From the UHGV virus genome UHGV-0339891: a stretch of 17,122 nt of DNA; one strand, 5' to 3'. Positions 7,031-17,122 of the stretch are shown one piece after another. Positions within the stretch are counted from its first letter, which is position 1; each line of letters opens with the position of its first letter. A program made the position numbers and the translations under genes. This DNA comes from a virus. The notes under the pieces were generated by a model, which worked only from the letters and a program-made list of their open reading frames with translations, was not told the DNA's origin and did no database searches.

Positions 7031-7738
7031 TTACCAACTATGAGACGACCAGAATACTCTGCCAATAATCCTTACGGTTTTATGAAATTCATCTCTATCC
7101 ATTACTTCATCCGGGTACTCTTCGCGATTTATTGATCTGATTATCACCGATGTAGGGGTGGCGATTAATGTTTTTACTCGTAACAAATCAGACTGGCAAA
7201 TAGCGTAGGTTTTACCATCTCTGATTGTGGTATCTTGCGTGTTAACACCAACAACATCGCCATCGTGAAGCGTTGGTTCCATGCTTTGCCCTACAACCCT
7301 AACTAGCTTGGCTGATCTTTCAGATACTCCCATCTTTTTCAGATAGTGCTTTCTGAAAACCAAAGAGAACTCCGATGATTCCTCTAGCTCGCAGCTACCG
7401 CTTCCAGCTGAAAGCGAAACGTTAAGAAGAGGCAACGCAACAAACTCGTCATCGTTTCTTTTAATGTCTTCCCATACCACAGCTTTTAAAGATGACTCAC
7501 GGACATTGGATGGTTCTTCATGTGCACCATCCCTCATTTCACCAATACCAGAACTAAGCCATTCAGGACGCACTTTTAAAGCATTGGCTAATTCAACCAT
7601 CTTGCGAGATCCGTTTGTTTTACCGGACGACATCTTCTGTATGGCTGGCTGAGATATTCCAACCATGTCAGCAAGCTGTGATTGTGATACCCCTGCTGAG
7701 CTCATGGCTGCATTTAGTCTTTCTGCGAATGTTTTCAT
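7031..7738 (-). CDS. cI: cI-type prophage repressor (HTH plus LexA-like S24 peptidase domain)
   Basis: ORF track 7031..7768 (TTG); ATG at 7738 (MKTFAERL); HTH segment QSQLADMVGISQPAIQKM; Ala-Gly site in LSAGSG; Ser in GQSMEP and Lys in LLRVKTL. Confidence 0.8.
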   Translation of the reverse strand: MKTFAERLNAAMSSAGVSQSQLADMVGISQPAIQKMSSGKTNGSRKMVELANALKVRPEWLSSGIGEMRDGAHEEPSNVRESSLKAVVWEDIKRNDDEFVALPLLNVSLSAGSGSCELEESSEFSLVFRKHYLKKMGVSERSAKLVRVVGQSMEPTLHDGDVVGVNTQDTTIRDGKTYAICQSDLLRVKTLIATPTSVIIRSINREEYPDEVMDRDEFHKTVRIIGRVFWSSHSW

Positions 7739-7745
7739 ACCCACA

Positions 7746-7816
7746 AATCTATAACTACGGTTATCCAAAGTAAAATAACAAAGGTTATTGCTATTTTTTA
7801 TAACTTGAGTTATCTT
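7746..7816. promoter_or_regulatory. OR region: three operators with divergent pRM and pR
   Basis: Operators ATAACTACGGTTAT 7751-7764, ATAACAAAGGTTAT 7775-7788, ATAACTTGAGTTAT 7800-7813; pR -35 TTGCTA 7788-7793, 17 bp, -10 TATCTT 7811-7816; pRM (minus) -35 TTTACT 7769-7774, 17 bp, -10 TAGATT 7746-7751, giving a near-leaderless cI. Confidence 0.6.
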
Positions 7817-12388: not shown

Positions 12389-12748
12389 ATGGATTATTCA
12401 CAGTTAAGTGATTTTGAAATTAACGTGGCGGTATTCGAAGCCATTCATAACGGATCACCGGATTACAAAGAAGGTGAGAATGGCGATGTGGTGTTTGTCT
12501 CATTTGAGGGAGACATTGTAAACGGAGACGCAGTTGAAGTAGAAGTTGAGCGCGGTTCCTTTAACCCATGCGCAAACCCAGCAGACGCATGGCCGATTAT
12601 TGAAAAATACAGGATTAGCATTATCAATCTCGATGAAGACGAGTGGGGTGCACGCGGTGTGGCCTACTGTAAATCTAAGCGAGCTATACATGAAAATCCC
12701 CTCCGCGCCGCCATGATTGTCTTTCTCATGATGCAGAGAATCCAATAA
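12389..12748 (+). CDS. Hypothetical acidic nin-region protein (119 aa)
   Basis: ORF track 12347..12748; preferred ATG 12389 just after the ninE stop. Confidence 0.45.
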   Translation: MDYSQLSDFEINVAVFEAIHNGSPDYKEGENGDVVFVSFEGDIVNGDAVEVEVERGSFNPCANPADAWPIIEKYRISIINLDEDEWGARGVAYCKSKRAIHENPLRAAMIVFLMMQRIQ

Positions 12749-12924
12749 TGCTTAGCCCATCCCAATCCATTCAATACCAGAAAGAAAGCGTCGAGCGGGC
12801 TTTAACGTGCGCTAATTGCGGTCAAAAGCTGCATGTGCTGGAAGTTCACGTGTGTGAGCACTGCTGCGCAGAACTGATGAGCGATCCGAATAGCTCAATG
12901 TACGAGGAAGAAGACGATGAGTGA
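12748..12924 (+). CDS. ninF: NinF-like Cys-rich small protein (58 aa)
   Basis: Hand translation MLSPSQSIQYQKESVERALTCANCGQKLHVLEVHVCEHCCAELMSDPNSSMYEEEDDE; start overlaps the upstream stop (TAATG). Confidence 0.55.
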   Translation: MLSPSQSIQYQKESVERALTCANCGQKLHVLEVHVCEHCCAELMSDPNSSMYEEEDDE

Positions 12925-13129
12925 TTACCTGAAATGGTATCTCTGCCACCGCTGGTTAATTAAGTTTGCTGTAAAAGACTGGATGACAGCGGATGCCAAC
13001 AAGCTTAAGCAAAGAAAAGACTATTACTACGCCAGAATGAAGGAAAACTACTGCTCAATTCGCACTCGCATATTTATTAAAAAAGACCTTCAGTCAATTC
13101 TTCAATTGCGAGGGAAGGTAAATGGCTAA
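12917..13129 (+). CDS. Hypothetical AT-rich small protein (70 aa)
   Basis: ORF track; ATG overlapping the ninF 3' end. Confidence 0.35.
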   Translation: MSDYLKWYLCHRWLIKFAVKDWMTADANKLKQRKDYYYARMKENYCSIRTRIFIKKDLQSILQLRGKVNG

Positions 13130-13412
13130 CCTACGCAAAGAAGCGCGCGGCAGAGAATGCCAGGTACGTATTTACGGCGTATGCAATGGCAATCCTGAAA
13201 CTACAGTTCTGGCACATTACCGGATGGCTGGAATTTGCGGAACGGGAATGAAACCTGACGACATGATCGGCGCATGGGCTTGTAGCGCGTGTCACGATGA
13301 AATCGACCGACGCACCCATAACCTCGACAACAAAGACGCCAGACTTTACCACCTCGAAGGCGTGATCAGGACGCAGGCGATACTGCTGAAGGAGGGGAAG
13401 ATTAAGTCATGA
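13122..13412 (+). CDS. YbcO-like (DUF1364-type) Cys/His-rich putative nuclease
   Basis: ORF track; RGRECQVRIYGVCNGNPETTVLAH... with conserved Cys/His pattern (recalled as DLP12 YbcO-like). Confidence 0.55.
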   Translation: MANLRKEARGRECQVRIYGVCNGNPETTVLAHYRMAGICGTGMKPDDMIGAWACSACHDEIDRRTHNLDNKDARLYHLEGVIRTQAILLKEGKIKS

Positions 13413-13771
13413 ACGAATATCAGTTTGTGCTTCCATACCCGCCGTCGGTGAACACCTACTGGCGAAGACGGGGAAGCCAATACTACATCAGCGATAAAGG
13501 CCAGAAATACCGAAAAGACGTTCAGCAAATCATCCGCCAACTCAAGTTAGACATTTTCACCAAATCACGACTACGAATCAAAATAATCGCAGACATTCCG
13601 GACTCACGTCGCCGCGATCTCGACAACATCCTTAAATGCTTGCTCGACTCCCTTATCCACGCCGGATTTGCGGAAGACGACGAGCAATTCGATGACATTC
13701 GCGTAATTCGTGGTGTGAAAGTACCAGGCGGAAGGCTTGGAATAAAAATCACCGAACTGGAGAACGTATGA
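13409..13771 (+). CDS. rusA: RusA Holliday-junction resolvase
   Basis: ORF track; DSRRRDLDNILKCLLDSLIHAGF matches E. coli RusA [23 protein letters not shown] (recalled). Confidence 0.8.
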   Translation: MNEYQFVLPYPPSVNTYWRRRGSQYYISDKGQKYRKDVQQIIRQLKLDIFTKSRLRIKIIADIPDSRRRDLDNILKCLLDSLIHAGFAEDDEQFDDIRVIRGVKVPGGRLGIKITELENV

Positions 13772-13956
13772 ACGCCACAATTCAAACGATACCAGAGCTT
13801 CTTATCCAGACACGAGGCAATCAGACCGAAGTGGCGAGGATGCTTTCCTGCGCAAGAGGAACAGTGCTCAAGTACAACCGAGACAGCAAAGGCGAGCGTC
13901 ATGTAATAGTTAACGGCGTCCTGATGGTCAAACAGGGCAAGAGGGGAAGACGATGA
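13768..13956 (+). CDS. ninH: NinH-like protein
   Basis: ORF track; TIPELLIQTRGNQTEVARMLSCARGTV resembles lambda NinH (recalled). Confidence 0.55.
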   Translation: MNATIQTIPELLIQTRGNQTEVARMLSCARGTVLKYNRDSKGERHVIVNGVLMVKQGKRGRR

Positions 13957-14471
13957 GCATAAGAGAACTAAATCTCACCAAAGAGCAGCACGAGTGGCTG
14001 AATGGCTGGCTTGAACTGTGGGGCGCATGGGTTTATTCAGGTCGTCTGGAAAAGCGCATGAGCAGCGTAATAGCGAAGTTCATGGAGAGCGTAGAGCCGG
14101 GAAGAGTTATGACAAGGCCAATGTGCAATGATGATGATGGAATGTTGATTTCTCAGGTCGTCGATTCCGTCATGTACATTGACAAAAAAGCCTTTGGGAT
14201 CCTCCTCAGCTACTACGCTCATGGTTCATCTAAGCGAGCAATTGCATCCTACTATCACGCGACTGCAAAGCCACGCAAGATGTGTGGACGTGGTGGCGAG
14301 GGATGGAGAAAACCTTCACTGGCAACCTGTAGAAACGAAATTGACGACATCCTGAAAGCGTCGTTATTTGTTTTGTACCAACCAATGCAAAATGCTTTCA
14401 AAATGCGTAAACGTGTTGAGAAAGTTAAGCATGTTGCTGTTAAAAGCCTTGACATGCAATTAGCCATTTAG
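13953..14471 (+). CDS. Q: Q-like late-gene antiterminator (phage 21/82-type Q family)
   Basis: ORF track; last gene before pR' and the lysis cassette; LELWGAWVYSG and CNDDDGMLISQVVD motifs resemble 21-type Q (recalled). Confidence 0.65.
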   Translation: MSIRELNLTKEQHEWLNGWLELWGAWVYSGRLEKRMSSVIAKFMESVEPGRVMTRPMCNDDDGMLISQVVDSVMYIDKKAFGILLSYYAHGSSKRAIASYYHATAKPRKMCGRGGEGWRKPSLATCRNEIDDILKASLFVLYQPMQNAFKMRKRVEKVKHVAVKSLDMQLAI

Positions 14472-14478
14472 CCATAAT
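14449..14478 (+). promoter_or_regulatory. pR'-like late promoter
   Basis: -35 TTGACA 14449-14454, 18-bp spacer, -10 CATAAT 14473-14478, inside the 3' end of Q. Confidence 0.5.
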
Positions 14479-14488
14479 TAGCAGGTAA

Positions 14489-14533
14489 GCTGCCGTTAGT
14501 GACTCTTAAGTTGCAACGGTGGCTTTTTTATTT
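14489..14533 (+). terminator. Terminator hairpin just downstream of pR'
   Basis: Stem GCUGCCGUU/AACGGUGGC (two G-U pairs) with 17-nt loop followed by TTTTTTATTT. Confidence 0.4.
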
Positions 14534-14770
14534 GCACAACAGGTAAGAGCATTCTCCCTTATGGGGCTTGGCTTAAATGCACCGAGTGCTCTTATCGTTG
14601 TGCTGAATTAAGCGAATGCCGGAAGCAGAACCGGATCACCAAATGCGTACAGGCGTCATCGCCGCCCAGCAACAGCACAACCTAAACTGAGCCGTAGCCA
14701 CTGGCTATCCTGAATTCATCAGTGATAGTTACGCTGCGGCCTTCTACACATGATCTTCGTGAAAGCGGGT

Positions 14771-14807
14771 GGCAGGAGGTCGCGCTAACAACCTCCTGCC
14801 GTTTTGC
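14771..14807 (+). terminator. Intrinsic terminator in the Q-S intergenic region (alternative tR')
   Basis: 9-bp stem GGCAGGAGG/CCTCCTGCC with 11-nt loop followed by GTTTTGCCC. Confidence 0.5.
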
Positions 14808-14925
14808 CCGTGCATATCGGTCACGAACAAATCTGATTACTAAACACAGTAGCCTGGATTTGTTCTATCAGTAATCGACCTTATTCCTAATTAAATAGAG
14901 CAAATCCCCTTATTGGGGGTAAGAC

Positions 14926-15249
14926 ATGAAGATGCCAGAAAAACATGACCTGTTAGCCGCCATTCTCGCGGCAAAGGAACAAGGCATCGGGGCAATCCTT
15001 GCGTTTGCAATGGCGTACCTTCGCGGCAGATATAATGGCGGTGCGTTTACAAAAACAGTAATCGACGCAACGATGTGCGCCATTATCGCCTGGTTCATTC
15101 GTGACCTTCTCGACTTCGCCGGATTAAGTAGCAATCTCGCTTATATAACGAGCGTGTTCATCGGCTACATCGGTACTGACTCGATTGGTTCGCTTATCAA
15201 ACGCTTCGCTGCTAAAAAAGCCGGAGTAGAAGATGGTGGAAATCAATAA
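14926..15249 (+). CDS. S: Class I holin S with dual-start MKM motif
   Basis: 107-aa ORF that appears essentially identical to lambda S (recalled). Confidence 0.9.
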
Positions 15250-15709
15250 TCAACGTAAGGCGTTCCTCGATATGCTGGCGTGGTCGGAGGGAACTGATAA
15301 CGGACGTCAGAAAACCAGAAATCATGGTTATGACGTCATTGTAGGCGGAGAGCTATTCACTGATTACTCCGATCACCCTCGCAAACTTGTCACGCTAAAC
15401 CCAAAACTCAAATCAACAGCAGCCGGACGTTACCAGCTTCTTTCCCGTTGGTGGGATGCCTATCGCAAGCAGCTCGGACTGAAAGACTTCTCTCCGAAAA
15501 GCCAGGACGCTGTGGCACTGCAACAGATTAAAGAGCGTGGCGCTTTACCGATGATTGATCGCGGTGATATCCGTCAGGCTATCGACCGTTGCAGCAATAT
15601 CTGGGCTTCACTGCCTGGCGCTGGTTATGGTCAGTTCGAGCATAAGGCTGACAGCCTGATTGCAAAATTCAAAGAAGCGGGTGGAACGGTCAGAGAGATT
15701 GAGGTATGA
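15233..15709 (+). CDS. R: Endolysin R (lytic transglycosylase)
   Basis: 158-aa ORF that appears near-identical to lambda R (recalled); start overlaps the S 3' end. Confidence 0.9.
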
Positions 15710-16143
15710 GCAGAGTAACCGCGATTATCTCCGCTCTGGTTATCTGCATCATCGTCTGTCTGTCATGGGCTGTTAATCATTACCGTGATAACGCCATGAC
15801 CTACAAAGAGCAGCGCGATAAAGCCACATCCATCATCGCTGATATGCAGAAGCGTCAACGTGATGTAGCTGAACTCGATGCCAGATACACAAAGGAGCTT
15901 GCTGATGCTAACGCGACTATCGAAAGTCTCCGTGCTGATGTTTCTGCTGGGCGTAAGCGCCTGCAGGTCGCCGCCACCTGTGCAAAGTCAACGACCGGAG
16001 CCAGCGGCATGGGCGATGGAGAAAGCCCAAGACTTACAGCAGATGCTGAACTCAATTATTACCGTCTCCGAAGTGGAATCGACAGGATAACCGCGCAGGT
16101 TAACTACCTGCAGGAATACATCAGGACGCAATGCCTTCGATGA
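15706..16143 (+). CDS. Rz: Rz spanin (i-spanin)
   Basis: First about 30 aa match lambda Rz ([30 protein letters not shown]), the rest is divergent; ATGA overlap with R. Confidence 0.8.
15905..16090 (+). CDS. Rz1: Rz1 outer-membrane lipoprotein spanin, embedded in the +1 frame of Rz
   Basis: ATG 15905 with AAGGAG 8 nt upstream; signal peptide ending in lipobox VSAC; proline-rich mature part. Confidence 0.65.
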
Positions 16144-16590
16144 TAGCGATAATTTTACTCATCATCCTTCACATCTGGCTCTGTAGACAGGGTGGTGATC
16201 ACTTCTGGAGTGAATCCAGATTAAACATCTCATTGCTGATGCTTGATATTGAGCATCTGGCGCGCGGTAAGGGGCTGCGTTGAGATAAGAGCCAGTTCAT
16301 TACAAAGCCTATCTACTGGTGGGCTTGATAATGAAACCGGAATTTATTCTGGGTAACCAGTTACGGCAGTACCGCGAAACAACCCAAGCCAGTAAGTGGG
16401 GAAATAACACTGGCAGCCACTGAAAGATGAACCTCCTGCCTTATGGCAAAAAAGATTCTTTGTGGTGGCGGACTGATGGAAAGACATCGGTTATTGCAGA
16501 GGCCATTCAATGAGTGGTCTCGACAATGGCTTATACCCTACACGGGATAACTTAACTGATATCCCTTTTAACGGATAAACGGAGCCAACA

Positions 16591-16833
16591 ATGGCAGAGA
16601 TTATTCCCATGACTGAAGAACAGAAATTCAAGTTAGAAATTTACCGACTGCTATCTAAGAACAATTCAGCGGCAGAGGAAGCGTTTGCATTCATTGGTGC
16701 TGACCAGTTGAAACTGGAATTGTTCAAGTTGCACTACAACGATGGCGGTGCAAATCCAGACTTCACATCTCGCACTATCGAAGCGGTGCGTAAATCGAAG
16801 GAAGCGTTAGACCTGTTCACTACCGGAGGGTAA
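16591..16833 (+). CDS. Hypothetical protein (80 aa)
   Basis: ORF track; ATG preceded by ACGGAG. Confidence 0.4.
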   Translation: MAEIIPMTEEQKFKLEIYRLLSKNNSAAEEAFAFIGADQLKLELFKLHYNDGGANPDFTSRTIEAVRKSKEALDLFTTGG

Positions 16834-16836
16834 GAG

Positions 16837-17010
16837 ATGACTGAACAAGAAATGCCGAGATACCAGTGCCACAAAAAAGTTCGCGCCCTGAAGATTGGCT
16901 CTATAGAACATAAGCCAAACCCAGATCAGTCTGGTAAGACTGGCTCTTCTAGTTATGGGGCAATTATTCATCCGGATGATAAGGGTGATGCTGCCAACTT
17001 ACTGATTTAG
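16837..17010 (+). pseudogene. Hypothetical gene truncated by IS1 insertion
   Basis: ATG 16837 with GGAGGG 6 nt upstream; the frame runs into the IS1 terminal repeat at 16984 and stops at an IS1-encoded TAG (17008-17010). Confidence 0.4.
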
Positions 17011-17122
17011 TGTATGATGGTGTTTTTGAGGTGCTCCAGTGGCTTCTGTTTCTATCAGCTGTCCCTCCTGTTCAGCTACTGACGGGGTGGTGCGTAACGG
17101 CAAAAGCACCGCCGGACATCAG
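16984..17122 (+). mobile_element. IS1 left end (terminal inverted repeat and start of insA), continues beyond the window
   Basis: GGTGATGCTGCCAACTTACTGATTTAGTGTATGATGGTGTTTTTGAGGTGCTCCAGTGGCTTCTG... matches the canonical IS1 left end from memory. Confidence 0.8.
17039..17122 (+). CDS. insA: IS1 InsA, N-terminal part (partial)
   Basis: GTG start; translation [27 protein letters not shown] matches IS1 InsA (recalled). Confidence 0.75.

Follow-up and report, generated by a model that had tools for sequence, protein, structure and literature searches.

Dec, the decoration protein of phage L and its relatives ST64T and epsilon34, is to our knowledge the only structurally characterized OB-fold decoration protein. 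Its contacts with the capsid are made by residues K30, Y31, Y49, Y71, and E73 (PMC6449081), and its tail is needed for capsid binding, as Dec1-98, the OB fold without the tail, fails to bind virions (PMC11398494). The Dec genes have been described in the epsilon34 paper as the "rightmost genes", adjoining the terminase (PMC2629481). In this study, we show that a gene whose product is a remote homolog of the Dec OB-fold domain occupies a corresponding place at positions 16144-17122 of the window (the whole stretch of 17,122 nucleotides that was analyzed), where its reading frame runs into the end of an IS1 element. With a probability of roughly 85%, we read this region as a recent, strain-private IS1 insertion in a Dec-like accessory gene of the late operon of a P22-like prophage, preceded by 447 bp that represent two empty gene-cassette sites.

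Judging from its sequence, the window belongs to a P22-like (Lederbergvirus-type) prophage from E. coli or Shigella. It spans the part of a lambdoid prophage that runs from the early-left genes through immunity, replication, nin, and Q to lysis, with genes for Ead/Ea22, Gp157, RecT, gp17 superinfection exclusion, CII, a DnaB-type helicase, NinB, and NinX, as well as for an S24 repressor (7031-7768, minus strand) and Q (13953-14471). The lysis genes encode a lambda-type holin (14926-15249), an endolysin (15233-15709), and the Rz spanin (15706-16143, plus strand; PF03245, E 1.9e-36; phrog_13, E 6e-73), in which Rz1 is embedded (15905-16090, a placement that follows from collinearity with Sf6 gene 64). 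At the DNA level, the region beyond Rz is closest to P22-like elements, both phages and prophages, whose hosts are E. coli, Shigella, or Salmonella, including Sf6, HK620-type phages, CUS-3, epsilon34, and SEN22. In an IS1-free sister prophage (L006), the gene interrupted in the window is followed on its 3' side by a 59-aa ORF, a GP3-type small terminase, the large terminase (TerL), and a P22-type portal. The region 16144-17122 is the accessory-gene part of the late operon, with the lysis cassette on one side and the terminase genes on the other.

The 80-aa ORF that the earlier note had placed after an ORF-free stretch proved to be a real gene. It is a DUF2560 gene of the HK620 hkbM/Sf6 gene 67 type (16591-16833, plus strand; phrog_571), whose product matches PF10834 at E 5.5e-37 over the whole model (positions 1-72), scoring 126.3 bits where the Pfam gathering threshold is 25, and its ATG has a GGAG 6 nt to the 5' side. 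The DUF2560 family is narrow, with 72 clusters from enterobacterial phages; the AF2 model of the protein consists of four helices (pLDDT 73) and gave unspecific structural matches, and a literature search on DUF2560 and hkbM returned nothing relevant. DUF2560 is the constant backbone gene between the lysis and terminase genes, and it is predicted to encode a small four-helix protein.

The second ORF (ORF2) starts 3 nt after the DUF2560 stop codon, behind a GGAGG. The earlier note had proposed that the intact gene be rebuilt from IS1-free homologs, and four such contigs were found by exact-protein look-up with the DUF2560 product: L006 (GCA_002459605.1), which is 100% identical to the window over 12591-16983 (4,393 bp), and L008, L009, and L115, which are 100% identical over their overlap, up to 16983. 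In these contigs the native first 49 codons (16837-16983, plus strand; 100% identity to all four) run on for 46 codons past 16983, giving a 95-codon gene that ends 9 nt before the downstream gene, which bears out the claim that IS1 truncates the second ORF. The intact product of 95 aa reads MTEQEMPRYQCHKKVRALKIGSIEHKPNPDQSGKTGSSSYGAIIHPDDK up to the IS1 site and KYAAFDVSAEYICKHRPMSGGYYVVYEDGYESYSPAEVFESGYSKL beyond it; RefSeq relatives annotate the same protein as hypothetical. An independent IS3-family insertion is present in the same 288-bp gene of another E. coli (L137).

IS1 generates a 9-bp (8-11 bp) target-site duplication and promotes adjacent deletions. The earlier note had attributed the terminal repeat from 16984 to IS1, and alignment agrees with it: 16984-17122 (plus strand) agrees at 139 of 139 positions (E 8e-66) with sequences that carry the annotation IS1A/IS1B family transposase, and copies with this identity are found at 72,747 places in E. 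coli genomes (median 10 per genome). The 23-bp terminal inverted repeat of the left end, GGTGATGCTGCCAACTTACTGAT, is read exactly at 16984-17006, and insA begins with a GTG at 17039 (IS1 nt 56), in the same orientation as the late operon; the zinc ribbon at the N-terminus of InsA is encoded at 17039-17122 (PF03811, E 5.4e-16), and the window ends within insA. In a three-way alignment, homology to the IS1-free relatives breaks exactly at 16983. The result is a 57-aa ORF (16837-17010) of 49 native codons followed by 8 IS1 codons (GDAANLLI) and a TAG, all from 16984-17010; the earlier note was right that this tail comes from IS1, but its count of nine codons plus a stop is one too many, there being nine triplets with the stop included.

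On this evidence an IS1 of the IS1A/B type would have transposed into the 288-bp gene directly 3' of the DUF2560 gene, after codon 49 of 95. The sequence suggests an ordinary event that is private to the source strain, and one that is probably recent, since the flanking 4.4 kb carry no substitution at all in comparison with the IS1-free sister prophages. The left IS1 junction was absent from 5,426 complete E. coli genomes, species-representative genomes, IMG/VR, and the JGI metagenomes, and a search for a record of the fusion protein found none. We assume a simple insertion, with one assembly as the source of the junction. In that case the known habit of IS1 predicts GATGATAAG (16975-16983) as the 9-bp target-site duplication; the far side would read the IS1 right end (...ATCACC), then GATGATAAG and AAATACGCAGC, and the native gene would resume after the right end as GATGATAAG followed by AAATACGCAGCATTTGATG.

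Since the window cuts IS1 short within insA, at nt 139 of 768, a simple insertion and an IS1-bounded deletion are indistinguishable from the window; the 3' half of the gene may simply lie some 0.8 kb farther away, or such a deletion may have removed it. It is therefore conceivable, if rather unlikely, that this IS1 borders a deletion or rearrangement of its own making and that the terminase and virion genes are gone, leaving the prophage a truncated remnant. Nothing is visible past IS1, and the right-junction pattern (IS1 right end, 0-14 nt, rest of the gene) had no match in species-representative genomes, as would be expected of a deletion. However, the left junction is equally absent from the same collections, which makes the missing right junction uninformative; moreover, the flanking prophage is otherwise identical to its intact sisters, and short-read contigs often terminate in IS copies. 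We retain the simple insertion as the preferred reading of the junction.

The product of the interrupted gene falls in phrog_11049, a family of unknown function, and has no match in Pfam, NCBIfam, or PADLOC. A word-indexed search returned 444 homologs, and a profile search of 1.84 billion representatives returned 5,013 clusters (defined at 50% identity) at E ≤0.001, 3,119 of them at E ≤1e-10; the family is thus real, large, and unnamed. Some of its members have C-terminal helical tails or an in-frame fusion to the next ORF, and in some proteins the domain is fused to Phage_gp49_66 domains. TAG-to-GAG fusions of ORF2 with the 59-aa ORF also exist, and a natural fusion has 158 aa.

The sequence, the profile, and the fold agree in relating this family to Dec, and we therefore identify the ORF2 product as a remote, previously unannotated homolog of the OB-fold (capsid-binding) domain of Dec. 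By BLASTP, the product matches ST64T Dec at E 0.002, with 30% identity over 46 aa. A profile built from 58 members had phage L Dec (6e3c_C) as its top match in the PDB, a weak one at E 0.33, and hhalign of the family gave 86% against the single ST64T Dec sequence and 95.6% (E 1.2e-8) against 26 Dec-family proteins, over 80 columns that correspond to Dec residues 8-89 and take in the whole OB-fold domain (residues 12-89). Kinship with Sf6 gene 66 (Gp49 family) was rejected (hhalign 0.6%).

Among 120 related loci of IMG/VR, DUF2560 was followed by the 95-codon ORF2 in 6 and by Dec (with or without orf129) in 8, each beginning a few nt past the DUF2560 stop codon; the others had neither, and in 20 loci DUF2560 was followed directly by the 59-aa ORF, with no 95-codon gene between them. 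Because ORF2 and Dec never co-occur (0/120 loci) and the Dec genes are "rightmost", beside the terminase, the two are alternative occupants of one slot.

The 57-aa ORF retains strands 1-2, and strands 3-5 are gone together with both helices of the model, that of the OB fold and the C-terminal one (E54-56, H58-64, E71-75, E80-83, and H85-91 all lie after codon 49). Also lost past codon 49 are 12 of the 19 invariant residues of the family (P66, G70, Y71, V73, Y75, G78, Y79, S81, P84, F88, G91, and Y92). Owing to the loss of these strands, helices, and residues, the fusion reads as a null allele, whichever role the intact protein has.

We propose that the intact ORF2 product is a dispensable, late-expressed OB-fold accessory protein. 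Our best guess is that it may bind a surface, sugar, or nucleic-acid ligand through its barrel and that it would not act as a stable capsid cement; the fold and the late expression were counted toward a surface- or ligand-binding role, and the authors of the work on Dec suggest that Dec itself may bind cell-surface carbohydrate. A true capsid decoration protein like Dec, whose loss would destabilize virions, is an improbable identity for the gene product, even though the homology is to the very domain by which Dec contacts the capsid, the slot is shared with Dec in a mutually exclusive manner, the gene lies in the late operon, and the tails or fusions seen in some members could supply oligomerization. 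The 95-aa protein terminates at the position aligned with Dec residue 89 and has no C-terminal trimerizing tail (Dec 90-134), and tail-less Dec1-98 leaves virions unbound (PMC11398494). Moreover, the five contact residues of Dec align, in the order given above, with E24, H25, D55, D77, and Y79 and are not conserved, the family of about 5,000 clusters has members between the lysis and terminase genes of phages with P22-type, HK97-type, and other head/terminase modules, and the fusions to gp49_66 domains and the inconstancy of the neighboring 59-aa ORF as a partner point the same way. A "split Dec", in which ORF2 and the 59-aa ORF would be joined by read-through of an in-frame TAG, is weakened by the 20 loci that have the 59-aa ORF without ORF2 and by ORF2 genes of 75% identity that precede different genes. 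A broader and quite speculative proposal, to which we attach little probability, is that, in many temperate phages, the members of this large unannotated family of tail-less Dec-like OB folds serve as accessory proteins that bind capsids or the (carbohydrate) cell surface; Dec would be a specialized branch among them with an acquired trimerizing spike. If it were true, the IS1 hit described here and the IS3-family hit in L137 would be natural knock-outs.

No frame of the DNA between Rz and DUF2560 (16144-16590, 447 bp) contains an ORF that reaches 60 aa, in accordance with the earlier estimate of about 450 bp. Its longest ORFs are of 50 aa (16131-16283, plus strand), 49 aa, and 47 aa (both on the minus strand). 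An ORF of at least 60 aa was also missing from 61% of shuffles of the same 447 bp; the lack of ORFs is not statistically unusual and is notable only in relation to phage gene density. The 50-aa ORF overlaps the Rz stop codon and is of the Sf6 gene 65/epsilon34 gp67 type (phrog_11822, E 3.9e-38); it has a hydrophobic N-terminus, is an annotated CDS in RefSeq relatives, Sf6, and epsilon34, and is present in about half of the 120 loci.

Comparison with 129 loci resolved the remainder of the stretch into a mosaic with sharp and recurrent breakpoints. At the first of them (16297/16298), which we call cassette site 1, 90 of the 120 loci hold other sequence 310-1207 bp long and only 10 share the unoccupied state of the window; the alignment of L002, for instance, has a 356-bp insert there. 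The unoccupied boundary (16298-16333, plus strand) consists of the 9-mer CATTACAAA at 16298-16306 and then a hairpin with a 9-bp stem, and inserts whose left flank extends to 16306 are bracketed by CATTACAAA as a direct repeat. By annotation, the genes carried at this site encode Rha, Gp49, GIY-YIG, KilA-N, DUF551, and anti-CRISPR proteins. At 16346/16356, 9 bp of the window are replaced by 67-68 bp in 31 loci. Cassette site 2 (16488-16512, plus strand), also unoccupied here, holds 129-1315 bp in 39 of the 120 loci and is where Sf6 gene 66 (Gp49 family) and other genes lie in relatives. The comparison indicates that the 447 bp most probably represent the unoccupied state of a two-site gene-cassette hotspot, together with the 50-aa ORF and a conserved non-coding leader.

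The small ORFs within the leader were considered as genes and rejected. One-base indels segregate inside those at 16319-16423 (plus), 16443-16550 (plus), and 16344-16487 (minus), and none of the three has a ribosome-binding site. In ST64T, the DUF2560 gene is annotated as "orf118" and is lengthened in frame on its upstream side; the 35-aa ORF at 16443-16550 corresponds to that N-terminal addition. This ORF is probably not a gene, as it has a poly-A indel just past the start codon in 3 of 29 sequences and no Shine-Dalgarno. For the region as a whole, defence-system models gave no meaningful match to any of the four small ORFs. A reading of 16363-16549 as the 3'-terminal part of a Rha gene was discarded too, the P22 match beginning at the stop codon of ORF201.

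The core of the leader is a block at 16356-16488 (plus strand; "module B") that always lies 5' of a DUF2560 gene. Its identity is 97-100% in most loci and 93% in P22, even beside DUF2560 genes only 42% identical in protein, and it is non-coding because segregating one-base indels at 16362 and 16447 (in 10/29 and 3/29 distinct sequences, respectively) break every small ORF there. Such conservation beside DUF2560 alleles with protein differences as high as 58%, with coding ruled out by the indels, could mean that the late transcript has a structured RNA element in 16298-16590, which might control, for instance, the stability or translation of DUF2560 and the downstream genes, and that this stretch is not a passive recombination joint. 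The plus strand folds with a z of −5.5, better than all 100 shuffles (−3.7 on the minus strand), the hairpin of cassette site 1 forms helix 1 of the predicted fold, and the common stem polymorphisms are wobble-compatible on the plus strand only (U-G/C-G, G-U/A-U). However, the Rfam 15 covariance models had no match to 16298-16590 at E up to 1, and none of 80 pairs shows a compensatory double change among 29 distinct sequences that are at least 94% identical; for sequences this similar, the observed covariation score was equaled by 260 of 500 shuffles, and for each of the other measures that number was 428 or higher. In addition, relatives have genes inserted in the middle of the element (16346/16356 and 16488-16512), which a single folded unit would not tolerate, and recent recombinational spread would yield the same high identity. 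A functional RNA in the leader is possible but unsupported, and this account of the whole of 16298-16590 seems doubtful to us compared with that of an empty cassette hotspot.

An assembly chimera, that is, a contig end misextended into one of the repeated IS1 copies (median 10 per E. coli genome) while the real gene is intact, would agree with a junction found in no other record and is nevertheless very improbable, as the break coincides exactly with base 1 of the IS1 terminal repeat, a position that transposition gives and a random mis-join rarely would.

The IS1 insertion is one more strain-private IS hit in a prophage, possibly with a polar effect on the downstream terminase and virion genes. 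A gene that annotation pipelines call hypothetical is now linked, by profile and fold, to Dec, and the size of its family poses a testable question, namely whether a tail-less Dec-like domain binds capsids or cell-surface sugars. For the P22-like phages, a cassette hotspot has been mapped and its 9-bp boundary defined, at which anti-CRISPR, Rha, homing-endonuclease, and Gp49 genes are exchanged. The added value is modest: a tail-less Dec relative in a large unannotated family, a two-site hotspot, and an independent IS3-family hit.

IS1A/IS1B insertions known from genes of E. coli and Shigella have the identical terminal repeat and insA start, a break in homology at the first base of the repeat, and a short fusion tail and stop that close the gene; the difference is that only 139 of the 768 bp are visible here and that this insertion is in no other record. 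The comparison with the lambdoid morons holds in part. The earlier note had called the gene moron-like, and it is indeed a sporadic extra gene among close relatives (6 of 120 related loci), in a position that is a known zone of genetic flux. However, no promoter-like or plus-strand terminator-like site of its own was detected around 16780-16990, and ORF2 belongs to the late operon, its translation being linked to that of the gene before it.

Dec of phage L, ST64T, and epsilon34 (PDB 6E3C) has a homologous OB-fold domain with the secondary structure elements in register, and it is likewise encoded by a late-operon gene right after DUF2560 (or orf129), near the 5' side of the small terminase gene. 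In contrast to Dec, which has 134 aa and a C-terminal spike, the 95-aa protein has no spike, unconserved contact residues, and a longer beta1-beta2 loop (residues 26-41); a 59-aa ORF separates its gene from the small terminase gene here, and its family, which is far larger, accompanies many head types. The arrangement as a whole is closest to that of Sf6 genes 65-68 and HK620 hkbM-hkbN, with which the locus shares Rz/Rz1, a gene 65-type ORF of 50 aa, the conserved non-coding block, DUF2560 (gene 67/hkbM), and an ORF of 59-63 aa (gene 68/hkbN type) ahead of the small terminase. In Sf6, cassette site 2 is filled by gene 66 (Gp49 family) and no gene separates 67 from 68, whereas in the window neither cassette site is occupied and a further gene, of 95 codons, lies between the 67- and 68-type genes.

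The non-coding block at 16298-16600 has a nucleotide identity of 93-100%, above that of the adjacent coding genes, and its conservation spans P22-like phages as well as some lambda-like siphoviruses (HK140, mEp235, and HK446). The RNA fold predicted for its + strand has a z of -5.5; an Rfam search of the block gave no match, and no covariation was found in the predicted fold. In 31 of 120 related loci, an alternative segment of 67-68 bp stands in place of the nine bases at 16347-16355 of the window, and the exchange is sharply delimited at 16346 and 16356. The block also reaches into the annotation of ST64T, where orf118 (1647-2003 of related locus L130; annotated as 118 aa) is a divergent DUF2560 gene with 42% identity. 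Its upstream extension, 38 aa in frame, falls within the conserved block, and the orf118 start codon was probably called too far upstream. Elsewhere in the window, the Q antiterminator and holin genes are about 450 bp apart, and this gap (14472-14925) presumably contains the late promoter and the Q-utilisation/terminator leader.

In the IS1-free sister locus L006 (4247-4723), the 95-codon Dec-like gene and the 59-codon ORF behind it share a reading frame, and nothing but a TAG and three codons lies between them. In several public sequences this TAG is GAG, and the two are encoded as a 158-aa fusion (proteins P0001-P0004 and P0006). Programmed read-through of the TAG would seem unlikely, since the pairing is not kept in relatives that are 75% identical.

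The 95-codon gene (288 bp) is also interrupted by an insertion sequence in another E. coli prophage (L137 4001-4844; GCA_054069455.1), in an independent second event. The insertion point is the end of codon 69, which would correspond to about 17044 were the window's gene intact. The element belongs to the IS3 family, with an OrfA-type transposase (PF01527, E 6e-14), and we take it to be IS911-like in appearance; the product of the interrupted gene is a 103-aa fusion (P0012). In Salmonella phage SEN22 (L005 155-1302), the gene-65-type 50-aa ORF holds a frameshifted transposon of 1.1 kb at the equivalent of window 16154-16160, a further mobile-element strike on the same post-lysis stretch.

A profile search found proteins (P0185, P0222, and P0265) that carry a Dec-like OB-fold domain on the N-terminal side of a fused Phage_gp49_66 domain (PF13876), the domain of the Sf6 gene 66 family. 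Stand-alone genes of that family fill the cassette sites next to the Dec-like gene in this part of the genome, and together with the fusion this hints that the two small domains are functionally linked. In the Dec-family alignment (A4), the OB-fold domain is common to all homologues, while the C-terminal tails fall into three or more unrelated types, namely the spike of the phage L type, longer tails rich in Thr and Ala (170-205 aa), and tails matching PF11133 (head fibre). The OB fold therefore acts as a module with exchangeable tails, of which the spike of phage L Dec is one.
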